64,000 bases of DNA from Myxococcota bacterium (GCA_036012755.1 DASCPX010000137.1:96001-160000); one strand, 5' to 3'. Positions 31,861 through 45,313 are shown, counted from the first letter of the stretch. Notes: generated from the letters alone by a model not told the origin. A program made the numbers and translations.

Positions 31861-32781
31861 TCAGACCATAGTCGCGGAGCTCAGGCTGTCGAGGAACATC
31901 ACGACGCGGCCCTCCTGCCGCCAGCTGAGGGCGGCGGCGAGGGTCTTCGCCGTGTAGGTGGGCTCCAGGGAGAGCCCATGCTCGCGACCGAGGTCCATGG
32001 CGCGGTTGCCGCTCTCGGTCGGCACGCCGTAGCCGCCGCCGAACTCGCTGTGCCAGACACGGAGGCGCTCTCCGTCGACGCGGACACCGAGGCGGCGACC
32101 GGCTGAGCGAGCGAGCGCGAGCACGATGCTCCGATTCGCGAAGGCTCGGTCCACGACTCGGACGGCGTGTAGCCGCGTGGACAGTCCGGCCATCTGCAAT
32201 CCGACCAGCAGTCCGGCGACGGTTCCGCCGCTTCCGAGGGCTGCGAAGAGATCCGTGGGCTCCGGGCACTCCCCACGCTTCACCTGCTGACCCAGCTCCA
32301 AGCCGCCCTCGACCCAGCCCAGCGAGCCCAGCGGCGTCGATCCCCCCGCCCAGACGAAGTAGGGCCAGCGGCCGTGACTGCGGTGGACCTTCTCTGCGGC
32401 GTCGATGGCCGCGAGGGGGAGGAGGATCTCCTTCGGCACCATCGTGATGCTGGCTGCCTCGAGCTGGAGCCTGCTCCAGTTCTTCTCTACGTGCGGTGTC
32501 GAGGGCTGTGGCAAGACCAGCGCGTGCGTGCGGACGCCGAAGCGCTTTCCGTGCAGGGAGCAGGCGAGCAGGTGGTGGCTGCCGGTCGCGCCCAGGGTCA
32601 GCATGTCACCGCCGCGGCGGCGCGCCTCTGGCAGCAGGTAGGCCAGCTTGCGGACCTTGTTGCCGCCGTAGAGCGTGTGGGAGCGGTCCTCGCGCTTGGC
32701 CCAGATGCCAAGGCCGGTCACTTCCTCTACGGGAGTGGGGAAGTCCCCGACATCATCACGCTCGAAGCTGCCCAGTGACAC
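31861..32781 (-). CDS. D-cysteine desulfhydrase / ACC deaminase family PLP enzyme
   Basis: AKRED...YGGNKVRKL, GGSTPLG, LGSGGTVAGL, LEPTYTAK. Confidence 0.88.
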   Translation of the reverse strand: MSLGSFERDDVGDFPTPVEEVTGLGIWAKREDRSHTLYGGNKVRKLAYLLPEARRRGGDMLTLGATGSHHLLACSLHGKRFGVRTHALVLPQPSTPHVEKNWSRLQLEAASITMVPKEILLPLAAIDAAEKVHRSHGRWPYFVWAGGSTPLGSLGWVEGGLELGQQVKRGECPEPTDLFAALGSGGTVAGLLVGLQMAGLSTRLHAVRVVDRAFANRSIVLALARSAGRRLGVRVDGERLRVWHSEFGGGYGVPTESGNRAMDLGREHGLSLEPTYTAKTLAAALSWRQEGRVVMFLDSLSSATMV

Positions 32782-32790
32782 AGGGCGAGC

Positions 32791-34638
32791 CTACTCCTCC
32801 TTCGCCAGCTCGCGCTCGAGCACCTCGACCATCGCCTCGTGCTCGAAGCGGTTGTTGACGTACTGGATCGTGCCGTCGATCCCGATGATCCAGTCCTGCG
32901 GGAAGGCGGCGGTCGGGAAGGCGAACTCCTGCTGGTAGTTCATGATGACCCCCGCGTCGTCGACGAGCACGGGCATCGTCAAGCCGAGGGCGTCGCGGAA
33001 CTCCTCCAGCACGGACTCGTCCTCCATCCCGATGGCCCAGACCTGGACGCCGCGGTCGGCGTAGACCTGGTAGATGCTCTGGTCGATGTCCGAGACCTCG
33101 GACGGGCAGACCGGTCACCAGGTCGCGAAGTAGGCGAGCACGACTGGATGCCCGAGGTGCTCTGACAGCGTGTGGCTGTTGCCCTCGAGGTCGCGGAGCG
33201 TGAAGTCGGTGGCGGTGGCGCCGATGTAGCTCCCAGAGTCGACGCCCGAGATGAGCTCCCTCTCCTGCGTTGGGCCGTCCGCGTCGTTGGAGGCCACGCA
33301 GAGGGTGGCAGAGAGGTCGTCTCCGCCGCCGTAGGTCAGGCGGATCAGCGCGCTCTGGCCAGAATCCAGCAGGCTCCCGCTGACCTCGACGGTGACCTCG
33401 TCGCTGTCGACCGTGGCTCCGGACAGCTCGAGGACGCCGGCTCCGCGATTGGTGACCCGGACCTCGGTCGAGCCGCCCTCTGCGGGGAGCACGATCTCCT
33501 GGTCGCTCATGGAGAGTTCGCCGGCCTCTGCCCCCGTCCACTGGAAGCTCGAGAAGTAGTTCCAGTCGCCGACCCAGCCGACATCTCCAGAGGCGCCGAT
33601 GGCCAGGGCGAACTGCTCGCTGACCTCTCGAGCCAGCCAGGTGGGGTTCGTGGGGTCGGAGATGTCGAAGAGGGCGACGCCCGTGTGGTCGGCGGCCCAG
33701 AGGCGCCCATCGGCGGTGTCGGTCATGAGCACCGATCCCCCGGTCTCGACCAGGGCGACCTCGGTGGGCGCGCTGGGGTCGGAGCGCTCGAGCACGCGGA
33801 CGCCGTAGCCCCCGTTGCTCACGTAGAGGTAGTCCGCCGTGGCCTCGACATGGAGGGTCGCCCCGTCGACCGGGACGGGATCGTGGACGACGGGGTTGCC
33901 GGGATCGCTGACATCGATCGGGTAGACGCCGCCTGCGTTGTCGGCCGCGTAGGTCCAGCCCTCGATGATCTCGGAGAGGTCCCAGGTGGTCTCGGGCCCG
34001 GCGACGGTGGTCAACAGCTCCGGGTTCTCGGGGTCGGTGAAGTCGTAGGCTCGGACGCCCTCGCCCCGCACGGTCGTGTACAGGATCGGGTCGGACCAGG
34101 CGAGCCCCTCGAGTCCGGACTCCAGCACCGGGTTGTGCTGCTGCCAGGTCCCGGCGCTGTCACGGATGGCGACCGTGAGGCCAGTGTCCCGATGCGACAG
34201 GGCGAGGATGCCGTCGCCGAGGACCTCGACCCGGTGGTAGCGAGCGTGGTCGTCCTCTTCGGGGAACCACGTGACGAACTCTGGGGCGGAGACATCCGAG
34301 ATGTCGAAGATGCCCAGCCCGCCTTGACCGACCGCGTAGGCATCGTCCCCGTCCAGGTCCAGATCGACCCACTCGGCGAAGCGCGCTGGTCCCGGCTCGT
34401 CCTTGCCCTTCTTGTCGTACCCCATCCACACCAGGGGGTCGTCCGGGAGGTCCGCTGGGGCCTCGCAGCTGGCGGGGAGCGTCGTCCACTCGATCGGCTC
34501 GCCGGTGTCGCCGGTGTCATCTCCAGGGAGAGACGTGTCGTCCTCTTCTCGAGAGCCGGGCACGCAGGTGCCTTCGGCGGTCAGCAGCTCGTCTGGGGCG
34601 CAAGGGTGGCTGGAGCAGCTCAGGGACAACAGAAGCAT
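32791..34638 (-). CDS. Predicted selenoprotein (615 aa): lipoprotein leader, LVIVD-like beta-propeller, Ig-like domain and TlpA/redoxin domain with U-P-V-C
   Basis: In-frame TGA at 33115-33117 within YFATW*PVC; the frame stays open into ORF 32791-33027 (FPQDWIIGIDG); SECIS-like hairpin follows. Confidence 0.85.
33081..33114 (-). promoter_or_regulatory. Bacterial SECIS element candidate
   Basis: UGA-CCGGUCUGCCC-GUCCGA-GGUC-UCGGAC-AUCGACC: upper stem starts 11 nt after UGA, with AGGUCU apical sequence. Confidence 0.75.
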
Positions 34639-34723
34639 GCCCGGAGGATGCCACCGGGGGCACTGGGTTTCGCAGCTCGTAATGCCCGAGACACTCCGAT
34701 CCGATTCCCTGTCCGGAGGCTAC

Positions 34724-35828: not shown

Positions 35829-37184
35829 ATGCCGCGCGCCCCAATGCTTCTGTTGCTCGCCGGAGCCGCCCTCGCTGCAGATCATCGTGGCTGGACCGAG
35901 GGCACGCCGGCGGCGGGTACGGGGGCCCTGCTGGCGCCGCGGGATCCGATCCCTGTCGAGCTGCCCGCCTGGGTCGTCGAGCGGGTCGCGGGGCCCACCT
36001 TCGTCTACTACTTCTCTCCAGCCTGCCCCCACTGCCAGGCCACTATCGGCGAGGTCGTCGAGCTCTCGGCGAAGACCCCGGGCGTGAGCTTCATCGGCAT
36101 CTCGACCGGGCGCGCGACCGAGGAAGAGGTCAGCCGGTTCAAGGCAGACAACGGCGTCGAGTTCGACATCCTGATCGACCAGCCCCAGGGCTTCGCCTAC
36201 TCCCTGGGCGCTCGCTCGACGCCGACGGTCCTGGTCCTCGAGCCCGCAGGGTCCGGCGTGGTCGCCACGGACTACTACGGACCCTGGGTCCAGGGGAACT
36301 CGCTCTTGTTCCAGATGCGGAGAACCCCGGAGATGGCCTTCGCGATGTTCGAGGAGGACGTGTACCAGGGGGACTCCGTCTGCGGCGCCTGCCACACGGA
36401 GGAGGCTCGCAGCCTCTCGCTCACCCACCACGCCATCGCCTACCAGACCATCTACATGCACGACGACCAGGACGACCCGGAGTGCGTCGCCTGCCACGTC
36501 ACCGGGCTCGGCGCCCAGAGCGGCTTCCAGCTCGGCGAGCACGACAGCATCCTCGCCGGGGTCGGGTGCGAGGCCTGCCATTCCCCGGGCGGTCCCCACG
36601 ATGGCGCGGTCGTCGACCCCCGGACCGCCTGCGTCGCCTGCCACGACGCGGAGCACAGCATCGCGTTCTCGGTCGAGAAGGGCCTCCCCCACATCGACCA
36701 CTTCAGGGCGAACGCAATGACCGATGCCCAGCTCCACGCTCGGTGGATGGAGCTCGCCACGGGCGAAGCCGCCCGGCCGCTGTTGGCCTTTCCGGAGGGC
36801 AGGAACCTGGGCCCGTCAGCCTGTGTGTCCTGCCACGAATCAGAGGTCGCCGCCTGGGAGGAGTCCAGCCACGGCGAGGCCATCGAGTCGCTCTCGCGCA
36901 AGGAGCGGAGACAGCTCGACTGCGTGCGCTGCCACGGGACCCCGTCCTCCAGCGGCGCGCCGCCTGCCAGCGTCGAGGACTACAGCGCCGGTGTCGGCTG
37001 CGAGAGCTGCCATGGGCCGGGAGAGGCCCACGTGGAGGCGCCGTCCTCGTCGAACATCCAGGGCCTGGGCGAGAGCTGCGCGGAGTGCGTCATACAAGCG
37101 GTCTGTACGAGCTGCCACGACAAGGAGTGGGACGCCGCCTGGAGCCTGGAGGCACGCATGGAGTCCATCAAGGGCCACAAGTGA
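35829..37184 (+). CDS. Thioredoxin-fold (CPHC) domain fused to a multiheme cytochrome c with 8 CxxCH motifs (c554-like duplication)
   Basis: FSPACPHC; CGACH, CVACH, CEACH, CVACH, CVSCH, CVRCH, CESCH, CTSCH; signal peptide. Confidence 0.88.
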   Translation: MPRAPMLLLLAGAALAADHRGWTEGTPAAGTGALLAPRDPIPVELPAWVVERVAGPTFVYYFSPACPHCQATIGEVVELSAKTPGVSFIGISTGRATEEEVSRFKADNGVEFDILIDQPQGFAYSLGARSTPTVLVLEPAGSGVVATDYYGPWVQGNSLLFQMRRTPEMAFAMFEEDVYQGDSVCGACHTEEARSLSLTHHAIAYQTIYMHDDQDDPECVACHVTGLGAQSGFQLGEHDSILAGVGCEACHSPGGPHDGAVVDPRTACVACHDAEHSIAFSVEKGLPHIDHFRANAMTDAQLHARWMELATGEAARPLLAFPEGRNLGPSACVSCHESEVAAWEESSHGEAIESLSRKERRQLDCVRCHGTPSSSGAPPASVEDYSAGVGCESCHGPGEAHVEAPSSSNIQGLGESCAECVIQAVCTSCHDKEWDAAWSLEARMESIKGHK

Positions 37185-37918
37185 CGGCGCTCGAGCTGCT
37201 GCTCCTGGCATTGGTCGGACTGGTCGCCGGCACGGTCAACACGATCGCAGGGGGTGGTTCGTTCATCACGCTCGCGGCGATGCTGTGGATGGGGCTGCCC
37301 CCGGTCGTCGCGAACGCCACGAACCGGGTCGGGGTCGTGGTGCAGTCGGGCGCGGCCACCGTCCAGTTCCACCGCGAGGGCCAGCTCCAGACCGGGGGCC
37401 TCGTGGCGGGGGGTGTCGCCGCTTGCGCGGGCGCGCTGATCGGCGCCTGGGTCTCCCTCGAGCTCGACGAGGAGCTCTTCGAGCGGCTCATCGGTGTGAT
37501 CATGCTGGCCTTCGTGCCGGTCCTGCTCCTGCGCCCGAAGCGGTGGCTCCAGGGTGCAGAGAAGGCTGCTCGTCCCTGGCTCCTCGTCCCGGCGCTCTTT
37601 GCGCTGGGCGTCTATGGTGGGCTGCTGCAGGCCGGCGTCGGCATCTTCCTGCTCGCGGCGCTGGTGCTGCTCGGGGGACACGACCTGGTGAGGGCCAACG
37701 CCCGCAAGGCCCTCGTCGTGATGCTCTTCACGATCCCGGCGCTGCTGCTGTTCGTGTGGCAGGACCAGGTCTTGTGGCTCGCCGCCATCGTGCTGTCCCT
37801 CGGCTCCGCCCTCGGCGGCTGGCTGGGCACGAAGCTCACGGTGAGGTGGGGCCCTGGCTTCGTCCGAGTCGTGCTGATCCTGGTGATCGCGGTGAGCGCT
37901 GTCCGGCTGTTGCTCTGA
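37181..37918 (+). CDS. TauE/SafE sulfite exporter family protein
   Basis: GTVNTIAGGGS, PPVVANATN, GVYGG...AGVG; GTGA overlap with the cytochrome gene. Confidence 0.9.
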   Translation: MTALELLLLALVGLVAGTVNTIAGGGSFITLAAMLWMGLPPVVANATNRVGVVVQSGAATVQFHREGQLQTGGLVAGGVAACAGALIGAWVSLELDEELFERLIGVIMLAFVPVLLLRPKRWLQGAEKAARPWLLVPALFALGVYGGLLQAGVGIFLLAALVLLGGHDLVRANARKALVVMLFTIPALLLFVWQDQVLWLAAIVLSLGSALGGWLGTKLTVRWGPGFVRVVLILVIAVSAVRLLL

Positions 37919-43673: not shown

Positions 43674-44144
43674 CTACTCCGCCAGCTTGCGCAGGCGACC
43701 CTCGAGGGCCTCGATGTCCTCTTCGGAGAGGGCGCCGCGTAGGACCTCGACCACCTCTCCCGCCTTGTCCATGACGTAGCTGGTGGGCATCGCAGCCGGA
43801 TCGAAGAGGCCCACCACCGCGCCATCCGGATCCAGGCCCACCAGGAGCGACAGCTCCAAGCGCTTGATCGTCGCGTCGACCGGGGGACGACGGCGATCGA
43901 TGTTGATGGTGATGACCTGGGCGTCGCTGCCTTCGAGGCGCTCGCTCAGGGCGTCCAGCATCGGCAGCTCCGCGAGGCACGGAGCACACCAGGTCGCCCA
44001 GAAGTTCAGGAGTGTGGCCTTGCCCTCCAGCTGGGAACGACCGAGCTGGGCGTCTGCCGTCGTTGGCAGGAGGAAGGCAGGCGCGTCGCTCCCGACGGCG
44101 GTGGCCGCGTGAGCGGGGCCCAGGAAGAGCAGCAGGCAGCCCAT
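43674..44144 (-). CDS. TlpA-family thiol-disulfide oxidoreductase
   Basis: NFWATWCAPCLAELP, MPTSYV; TGATG coupling. Confidence 0.92.
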   Translation of the reverse strand: MGCLLLFLGPAHAATAVGSDAPAFLLPTTADAQLGRSQLEGKATLLNFWATWCAPCLAELPMLDALSERLEGSDAQVITINIDRRRPPVDATIKRLELSLLVGLDPDGAVVGLFDPAAMPTSYVMDKAGEVVEVLRGALSEEDIEALEGRLRKLAE

Positions 44145-45313
44145 CAGTAGACCCACGCCGTCGACGTCCCCCCCGTGCCGCTGTCGACGCCGTCGCTGGG
44201 GGTCACCGTCAAGGTCCACTGCTGGCCTGTGTGCACGTCCTCTCCAGGCACCTCTGTGCCGGTCCCGTAGGCCGCGCCGTCCACCGTCCAGGCCACCGTG
44301 TAGGTGATCGCGTCGCCGTCCGCGTCGACGGACGCGGTGTCGATCATGGCGATGAGGGTGGTGCCCTCCCTGGGGTTGGTGGGGTCGATCCACACCGTGG
44401 GAGCCGTGGGCGCGGTGTTGGCCACCTCGACCTCGTCGCTCGCGACCGTCTCGCCGACCCCCTGGTCGTCGCTGACGGTCAGCTCACAGGACACGAGCTG
44501 CGCGCGCACCACCGAGCCTGCCGCGAGGATCTCGCCCTCGGCTGCCGCCACTCCATCGATCGTCCAGACGATCTCTGTGCTCAGCTCGTCGTCGTCGGCA
44601 TCGTCCTCTCCCAGCCCGATGCAGGTTGCCTCCGTCTCGGCGGTGAGCGGCTGGGGTGTGATCACTGCGGCGCCGAAGGTCGGCGGTGTGTTCGAGATCC
44701 CGACACCTGCCCACGCCTCGGCCCGGGCCTGGCTCCCGTCGACGGTCGCCGCCCTGCAGAGCCACTGCTCGTCGCGGGTGGTCTGGTCCGGGTCCACGCT
44801 GGAGCTGTCGGAGTCCTCTACCTCCACCCCGTCTCGGAACCAGGTGTACATGACCTCCAGCTGCTCGCCGTCGGGGTCCGCCAGCTCGACGGTGGCATCC
44901 AGGGTGTCAGAGGTGGTGGGCTGCTCGGGAGAGAGCGTGAGGCTGATCTCCGGGCCCTCGTTGGCGATCTGCACGTCGTCGAGGACCTCGTCGCTGACCA
45001 GTTCGCCAGCTCGCGCCGTGACGCTGAGGCTCCAGGTCTCTCCCACCGAGGTGAAGGAGGCGGGCACGGCCGCCGCGTCGTCCAGCTCTGGGACCGGCTC
45101 CCCGTCCACGCTCCAGCGCAGCGTCAGCTCGGGTGAGGCGCTCTCGGAGCTCTCCCCCGGGACCAGGACCAGGGCCAGGAGGTCCGCCGCGCTGCCAGGT
45201 GCCTGGGGCTGGATCGACACCACCGGCGCGGTGATCCAGGCGGGCTCCTCTGGCGTCGTGGAGGGTCGACCCCAGTCCTGATCGCAGGCGGGCAGCAGCA
45301 GGAGCCCCAACAT
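44144..45313 (-). CDS. Lipoprotein with about four Ig-like repeats
   Basis: MLGLLLLPAC; repeated P..P, DxDGD/E, W-x-x-DG and VTPxDG units. Confidence 0.75.
   Translation of the reverse strand: MLGLLLLPACDQDWGRPSTTPEEPAWITAPVVSIQPQAPGSAADLLALVLVPGESSESASPELTLRWSVDGEPVPELDDAAAVPASFTSVGETWSLSVTARAGELVSDEVLDDVQIANEGPEISLTLSPEQPTTSDTLDATVELADPDGEQLEVMYTWFRDGVEVEDSDSSSVDPDQTTRDEQWLCRAATVDGSQARAEAWAGVGISNTPPTFGAAVITPQPLTAETEATCIGLGEDDADDDELSTEIVWTIDGVAAAEGEILAAGSVVRAQLVSCELTVSDDQGVGETVASDEVEVANTAPTAPTVWIDPTNPREGTTLIAMIDTASVDADGDAITYTVAWTVDGAAYGTGTEVPGEDVHTGQQWTLTVTPSDGVDSGTGGTSTAWVY

Follow-up and report, generated by a model that had tools for sequence, protein, structure and literature searches.

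A predicted UxxC selenoprotein with beta-propeller and Ig-like domains, split in annotation at its selenocysteine codon, from a Myxococcota bacterium

An in-frame TGA at a redoxin active site

A 64,000-nucleotide stretch of a Myxococcota bacterium genome (GCA_036012755.1, DASCPX010000137.1:96001-160000; G000:C137:96001-160000 in our numbering of genomes and contigs), referred to here as the window, carries on its minus strand a predicted selenoprotein gene of 615 codons. The open reading frame (ORF) listing of the window divides this gene in two. A 507-residue ORF (33115..34638) ends in ...HPVVLAYFATW-TGA, and a 78-residue ORF (32791..33027), opening with an ATG at 33027, lies downstream in the same frame. 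Translation of the TGA as selenocysteine (Sec, U) gave a 615-residue open frame in which codon 508 is the sole in-frame TGA. The active-site stretch then reads ...AYFATW-U-PVC-PSEVSDIDQSIYQVYADRGVQVWAIG...FPQDWIIGIDGTIQY..., with ...FATW-U-PVC-PSEVSDIDQ... immediately around Sec508, and the Sec occupies the first position of a TlpA/ResA-type CxxC motif (W-U-P-V-C). An earlier note on this DNA, made from the sequence alone, had placed both ORFs in one frame with the TGA at the first cysteine of a redoxin motif, which the translation with U bore out; the TlpA that it used for comparison (43674-44393, minus) reads NFWATWCAPC, as the note had said. Judged from sequence comparison, the two ORFs are very probably one selenoprotein gene with its own selenocysteine insertion sequence (SECIS), wrongly split and truncated in annotation. 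The features of the locus are collected in Table 1.

Table 1. Features of the predicted selenoprotein gene and its downstream neighbour, in window coordinates.
Feature	Position	Strand	Details and basis
Whole predicted selenoprotein gene	32791..34638	minus	615 codons and TAG stop (32791-32793); start ATG at 34638
N-terminus MLLLSLSC	34615..34638	minus	Cys8 aligned with the lipobox Cys of homologs; unusually short leader
LVIVD-repeat beta-propeller, residues ~52-370, ~7 blades	33529..34485	minus	Pfam, AlphaFold, Foldseek
Ig-like beta-sandwich, residues ~375-465	33244..33516	minus	Eight model strands at 375-464
TlpA/ResA-like thioredoxin-fold (redoxin) domain, residues 471-615	32794..33228	minus	Pfam, NCBIfam, PDB, Foldseek
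TGA, predicted Sec508, first residue of U-P-V-C	33115-33117	minus	TGA in 61/61 homologous genes; Cys in 11 full-length database homologs
TGC, Cys511, predicted resolving Cys of UxxC	33106..33108	minus	Cys codon invariant (TGT 33/46, TGC 13/46)
Predicted SECIS hairpin GUCCGA-GGUC-UCGGAC	33088..33103	minus	6-bp stem, 4-nt loop; start 11 nt after the A of UGA
PLP-dependent D-cysteine desulfhydrase/ACC deaminase-family gene	31864-32781	minus	Start 10 nt after the selenoprotein stop

Conservation of the TGA codon and the hairpin behind it

Homologous genes were collected by a six-frame search of 41 genomes (the source genome and 40 relatives). Among the 150 matches listed, of 348, every one that spans the greater part of the protein has a single TGA. 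Reading of 60 loci (L021-L080) gave 58 distinct genes by motif scan, and three further genes with variant motifs (FFSPG-U, FSPT-U and FSSL-U) were found by tblastn. The TGA stood at the aligned column, before x-x-C, in all 61 homologous genes, which places the shared frame far beyond chance. Full-length homologs measure 584-762 residues and have the same layout as the 615-codon gene. Behind the TGA the frame remained open for 104-113 codons in 58/58 genes, and mean pairwise identity was 38% there versus 31.5% over the 430 residues before it. The downstream part is therefore not decaying, and the pseudogene-like decay that the earlier note had named as a sign against its proposal was not seen.

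Protein databases were searched with HMMER against 1.84 billion representatives (50% clustering), and the 150 best matches were classified. Ninety-one of these stop precisely at the Sec position; 75 of the 91 close with ...FATW and one (P0165) with the variant FFTPG. Another 11 are full-length with W-C-x-x-C, two are full-length without the motif (P0151 and P0175), 43 are proteins of more than 1000 residues that have LVIVD repeats alone in common, and three are fragments. The 11 full-length proteins carry Cys at the TGA column, so that the classical Sec/Cys pairing looked for at this codon holds, with Sec forms dominant (91 versus 11 among these representatives). The 91 annotated ends, together with the ATG available at 33027 for the 78-residue ORF, would also be expected if the TGA were a true stop, leaving a 507-residue propeller/Ig protein followed by a decaying remnant or by a separate 78-residue product. 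We consider this reading highly improbable. It has to contend with a downstream part that is open, in frame and better conserved than the upstream part, with a 78-residue ORF from which the active site and half of the thioredoxin (Trx) fold would be missing, with the continuity of the Cys homologs and with a covarying hairpin after the TGA, described below.

The machinery for Sec insertion, which the earlier note had suggested looking for, is encoded in the source genome (assembly of 6.7 Mb in 250 contigs, 96% complete). The tRNA-Sec on contig C61 scored 62.7 bits (gathering score 47) and was typed by ARAGORN as tRNA-SeC with anticodon tca. Matches were likewise obtained to selA (C149, 410 bits), selB (C137:87138-88187, 291 bits, cut-off 242) and selD (C70, 340 bits, itself containing one in-frame TGA); each of the four exceeds its curated cut-off. 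The selB gene and the window share a contig, with selB about 9 kb ahead of the window start. The selD gene (G000:C70:290568-291446, L018), with its in-frame TGA, probably encodes a selenoprotein itself. The TGA codon also serves as the ordinary stop of 9/20 family genes (the first 20 examined) and of a neighbouring cytochrome gene, and the code is thus not reassigned.

A hairpin follows the TGA (Table 1), and its loop G stands at +21/+22 and its loop U at +23, counted from the U of UGA. In Escherichia coli fdhF the loop G/U lies about 23-24 nt from the U of UGA. In subfamily A of the family (46 genes, ...ATW-U-PVCPSEVSD) the stem was paired in 98.6% of 276 cells, with double-sided changes at two of the six pairs (GC to AU, GC to CG and CG to GC). 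The covariation score of this subfamily was matched by 0/500 shuffles, and slid controls were paired at 18-51%. Subfamily B (12 genes, ...[FYW]-U-PxC(S/G)(L/P)E(V/L/F)PD) has a re-registered stem, GUCUGG/CCAGAC with the loop AGGUU, that was 97.2% paired and contained one UA to CG change; its shuffle control was weak (32/500 reached the score), as is to be expected with 12 sequences. Where the 3' arms of the two subfamilies differ, the 5' arms have changed to match, as judged by eye.

Synonymous codon use in subfamily A was near-fixed within the hairpin (Glu GAG in 46/46, Val GTC in 46/46, Ser TCC in 42/45 and Ser TCG in 41/43), whereas Val codons outside it were mixed (for example GTG 24, GTC 16, GTT 3 and GTA 2), indicating a constraint at the RNA level. 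The S-E-V-S-D residues after the CxxC motif were kept in 0/11 Cys forms, in keeping with a peptide motif that the RNA imposes. Pairing maintained by compensatory changes, together with frozen synonymous sites, argues that the hairpin is a bacterial SECIS, the element that the earlier note had expected downstream of the TGA. According to the Sargasso Sea paper (PMC1088965), bacterial SECIS elements have a small apical loop with a G and lie directly after the UGA; the hairpin has both features, a GGUC apical loop with G and a stem 11 nt after the UGA. An extended lower stem seen in the single-sequence fold was dropped, as it is not conserved in the alignment.

An in-frame TGA by itself cannot separate Sec from other kinds of read-through, in which near-cognate suppression or a changed code would place Trp, Cys or Gly at the codon. 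Such decoding appears very unlikely in view of the complete Sec machinery, the alignment of the TGA with the catalytic Cys of CxxC, the SECIS-type hairpin with its loop G at the expected distance, and the use of TGA as a normal stop in the family and in the neighbouring cytochrome gene.

The selenoprotein stretch is also present in marine metagenome runs. Contigs from two of these runs, X1 and X3, cover it fully with 0 differences, but may be its source. A 206-base contig from a vent metagenome of another study (X10) is identical to 33027-33232 (0 differences), so the TGA is unchanged in independent DNA. Short contigs of other organisms in marine and vent runs matched at >=90% over 33061-33162 only, and they differ at 33106, a synonymous TGC/TGT change of Cys511. 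The limitation of the match to this interval points to strong nucleotide conservation of the TGA-hairpin region throughout the community. The 615-residue protein with Sec508, decoded by SelB and a downstream SECIS as the earlier note had put forward, is supported by the machinery, the homologs, the hairpin, the independent contigs and the intact downstream region alike. The selenium-dependent short and long forms that the note had also suggested are speculative.

Domain architecture and a proposed extracytoplasmic reductase

The product was modelled with AlphaFold2 from a 70-row alignment containing 10 read-through genes and 13 full-length and 47 truncated database proteins. The model had a mean predicted local distance difference test (pLDDT) value of 92.9 and a predicted template modelling (pTM) score of 0.90, with low confidence at residues 6-9 and 29-43 only. 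Its propeller comprises 27 strands between residues 69 and 367 with pLDDT >90. The LVIVD family (PF08309), which was also found in relatives, matched in three stretches at 44.9 bits against a cut-off of 20.2, and Foldseek returned generic seven-bladed propellers with TMt up to 0.78. For the Ig-like part, Pfam gave weak matches, below cut-off, to HYDIN/VesB-like Ig and DUF1573 (E 0.17 and 0.21); propeller-plus-Ig periplasmic sensors and PorZ were the top Foldseek matches. Cys8, Cys58 and Cys447 are each >=90% conserved in the 70-row alignment.

In the C-terminal domain, Pfam matches run across the TGA, with AhpC-TSA at 472-594 (E 1.7e-20, 73.7 bits) and Redoxin at 473-605 (E 2.3e-13). The model shows a Trx fold at 480-614 in which U508-x-x-C511 stands just before helix 510-529; a dithiol-type site is present at the start of helix 1, with Sec replacing the first Cys. 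Foldseek matched ResA structures at TMt 0.85-0.88, the best being 1su9_B (TMt 0.87, root-mean-square deviation 1.9 A, 23% identity). The nearest solved chains by sequence are ResA (4nmu, 3.1e-10), StoA and the pneumococcal thioredoxin-family proteins 4hqs and 2yp6, which we take to be the surface lipoproteins Etrx1/2. Scores against the curated NCBIfam equivalogs ResA (65 versus a cut-off of 170 bits), TlpA (22.8 versus 230), DsbE and StoA fell far under the cut-offs, no NCBIfam model reached its cut-off, and the domain is therefore filed as a superfamily member only.

The earlier note had described the protein as a lipoprotein. This stands for the homologs, whose N-termini carry canonical lipoprotein signals (for example MRPRSALPLLLLAAC, ...LLLLAAC or ...LLLAAC), and Cys8 aligns with their lipobox Cys; it holds less well for the copy in the window, where only seven residues precede that Cys. 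No in-frame ATG, GTG or TTG was found upstream (34615-34719 region), and about 85 bases separate the gene from its divergent neighbour. The predicted export signal of this copy is atypical, and its short leader makes export less certain than for the homologs. The same very short start, M-L-L-L-x-L-A-C, is seen in several homologs, for example L033, L042 and L023 of the same genus.

From the likeness to ResA and TlpA we infer that the product may be an extracytoplasmic selenol/thiol reductase whose propeller and Ig-like domains serve for binding or anchoring. On the comparative evidence, SelB and tRNA-Sec insert selenocysteine at UGA codon 508 under the control of the in-gene SECIS hairpin 11 nt downstream. 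The predicted product consists of a short leader with a lipobox-type Cys, a roughly seven-bladed LVIVD propeller, an Ig-like sandwich and a C-terminal TlpA/ResA-type domain, the last of which would act as a reductant outside the cytoplasm in the manner of ResA, TlpA and Etrx. Attack of the Sec508 selenolate on a disulfide or similar oxidised group of the substrate would form a selenylsulfide, to be resolved by Cys511. Re-reduction could proceed via a membrane electron carrier of DsbD/CcdA type; the source genome has one DsbD_TM gene, unlinked to the selenoprotein gene. The propeller and Ig-like domains would serve to bind the substrate or to tether the enzyme to the cell surface.

Several observations weigh against this interpretation, or against parts of it. 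Both selenium incorporation at codon 508 and expression of the gene are predictions from comparison. No Rfam family fits the hairpin (scan of 32700-33400 with E up to 10, chance matches only). One match, on G002:C22, came in two pieces, the first without the TGA and the second with a TAA. The seven-residue leader has no positive n-region. A search of the neighbourhoods by tblastn of the window's neighbours and all-against-all clustering of flank ORFs (flanks of 1-2 kb) found no conserved operon partner for substrate or electron donor, the best neighbour clusters reaching 5-6 of 60 loci. Finally, the best Pfam model of the C-terminal domain is AhpC/TSA.

The AhpC/TSA match would suit a genuine selenoprotein whose C-terminal domain is a peroxidase or another peroxiredoxin (Prx)-like enzyme, reducing peroxides or sulfoxides rather than protein disulfides. 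A weak NCBIfam match to PrxQ points in the same direction, as do the filing of UxxC proteins as 'Prx-like' in the literature and the proposal that SOQ1, a Trx-like and propeller analogue, works as a methionine sulfoxide reductase. We regard such an activity as unlikely, though a serious candidate. The peroxiredoxin motif PxxxTxxC/U is absent; the site reads F-A-T-W-U-P-V-C, a thioredoxin-like W-U-x-x-C and not the peroxiredoxin TxxU/C given in PMC1088965. The closest solved relatives by sequence and by fold, moreover, are the ResA, StoA and Etrx reductases, and we favour the extracytoplasmic thiol/selenol reductase.

The divided match on G002:C22 (46435-47453) consists of overlapping pieces, of which the first corresponds to residues 256-516; either a broken copy or a frameshifted Cys form could account for it.

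Family expansion, gene neighbourhood and relation to known systems

By source label, close homologs come from metagenome-assembled genomes of Myxococcota or Deltaproteobacteria. A search of genome contigs with the single protein gave one weak Fibrobacterales redoxin match, uninformative for taxonomy. When genomes of the phylum were sampled evenly, 13 of 201 had a match at E <= 1e-40, among them 6/6 in the window's own family; each match reaching the redoxin part has one TGA. Among the matches listed in the six-frame search, those with one TGA numbered at least 14 in G008, at least 9 in each of G021 and G007, and at least 7 in G018. Family genes also occur in tandem pairs, for example on G002:C59 and G021:C244. 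The source genome itself has a second, divergent member (G000:C228:43879-45033, L069) that reads ...FSSL-U-PSC and is about 31% identical over the C-terminal part. The gene in the window belongs to a large and for the most part unrecognised Sec-dominant family, whose expansion in a marine Myxococcota-like lineage came about through both tandem and dispersed duplication. Two open frames of 141 and 284 residues (G006:C31:47667-48035 and G007:C56:44064-44588) cover the redoxin or Ig-plus-redoxin part only, with one TGA each, and could represent the redoxin module in a stand-alone or shortened Sec form.

The selenoprotein gene is followed by a pyridoxal phosphate (PLP)-dependent D-cysteine desulfhydrase/1-aminocyclopropane-1-carboxylate (ACC) deaminase-family gene (Table 1) and next by a DUF456 gene; the PLP gene also follows the tandem pair in a same-genus genome (L043). 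The divergent upstream neighbour encodes an AgmX/PglI-tail lipoprotein, beyond which lie a Trx-like and multihaem cytochrome gene and a TauE-family gene. The whole neighbourhood is common to the same-genus relative only. Recurring neighbours are the AgmX/PglI-tail lipoprotein and a sulfatase-like lipoprotein, at five loci each. The cytochrome gene (35829-37184, plus strand) encodes a secreted Trx-like domain (C-P-H-C) fused to a multihaem cytochrome c with eight CxxCH motifs, and its cytochrome part resembles the C-terminus of the NCBIfam 'UshA-like (seleno)protein'. A TauE/SafE-family membrane protein (~37205-37918, plus strand) follows it, and the pair looks like another exported redox module.

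It is possible, and we suggest it tentatively, that the selenoproteome of this lineage consists mostly of one Sec-dominant, surface-tethered 'propeller-reductase' family with 7-14+ paralogs per genome and diverging propellers, in which each paralog has a different extracellular or periplasmic target and the PSEVSD/SLEVPD residues are dictated by the SECIS RNA, not by protein function. Such a family would be an unrecognised major selenium sink and a new route to substrate specificity for an exported redox enzyme. Sec dominance and expansion (at least 14 copies in one genome) would rank these uncultured marine bacteria as selenoprotein-rich and tie them to selenium supply. The paralog series would provide natural specificity variants, and the contrast of Sec with Cys forms shows cleanly how an RNA element can constrain a peptide motif. 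For annotation, the 91 of the 150 best representatives that are cut at the Sec codon are named 'hypothetical', and no curated NCBIfam model would rescue them; a family model including the SECIS would repair these truncated annotations at once.

Parts of the protein have precedents in print. Table 1 of a 2026 review has an entry 'Prx-like thiol:disulfide oxidoreductase, PF00578, UxxC/UxxU' in its list of predicted selenoprotein families, and the words 'propeller' and 'Myxococc' are absent from its text. Prx-like UxxC selenoproteins also appear in the Sargasso Sea paper (PMC1088965). The passages on Prx-like 1-3 in the Global Ocean Sampling (GOS) paper of 2008 describe fusions with Secretin_N-like, Unknown_2 and Unknown_3, and none with a propeller. 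Two GOS reads filed under Prx-like 3 contain ...HPVVLAYFATW-U-PVCPSEVSDIEHS... and continue like the C-terminus of the present family; by this match the redox fragment was catalogued in 2008. Literature searches combining LVIVD with Sec or selenoprotein, or selenoprotein with beta-propeller, redoxin and Myxococcota, found no paper, though supplements of the other papers could list such genes. In the text of the deep-Sep paper, none of the words searched for such genes is present. The earlier note had thought the fusion undescribed: the redoxin fragment was already in the 2008 list, while a propeller fusion turned up in none of these searches. What is known is thus the Sec redox module; no publication was found that reports its fusion to a propeller, the dominance of Sec or the lineage-specific expansion.

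The catalogued Prx-like UxxC selenoproteins share with the present protein a redoxin/AhpC-TSA domain, a Sec in first position of UxxC and a SECIS directly downstream. They are short or fragmentary, whereas here the domain forms the C-terminal 145 residues of a 615-residue propeller and Ig-like protein, Sec outnumbers Cys, and copies reach at least 14 per genome. The curated ResA-like selenoprotein model of NCBIfam, 'ResA-like WAxxUGC motif-containing protein' (NF041054), is related in kind; the present protein scored 19 bits against its cut-off of 300, and the motif is UGC there and U-P-V-C here. With ResA, TlpA, CcmG, StoA and Etrx the protein shares the fold, sequence similarity, the W-x-x-x-C site and a conserved Pro in the loop ahead of the last strands, and its homologs share their lipoprotein or membrane-anchored setting. 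It differs from them in having Sec for the nucleophilic Cys, in the fusion behind a propeller and in the lack of a cytochrome-maturation context.

NHLRC2 and plant SOQ1 likewise combine a TlpA-like thioredoxin domain and a beta-propeller in one chain, SOQ1 being extracytoplasmic (lumenal), and the SOQ1 structure 7djl_B ranked 44th among the Foldseek matches. These proteins are eukaryotic, place the Trx domain first, carry an NHL and not an LVIVD propeller, and use Cys and not Sec. The resemblance is one of architecture only, and we do not claim homology of the whole chains. In that architectural sense the family would be the bacterial, Sec-using equivalent of NHLRC2 and SOQ1; the substrates of those two proteins are under debate.

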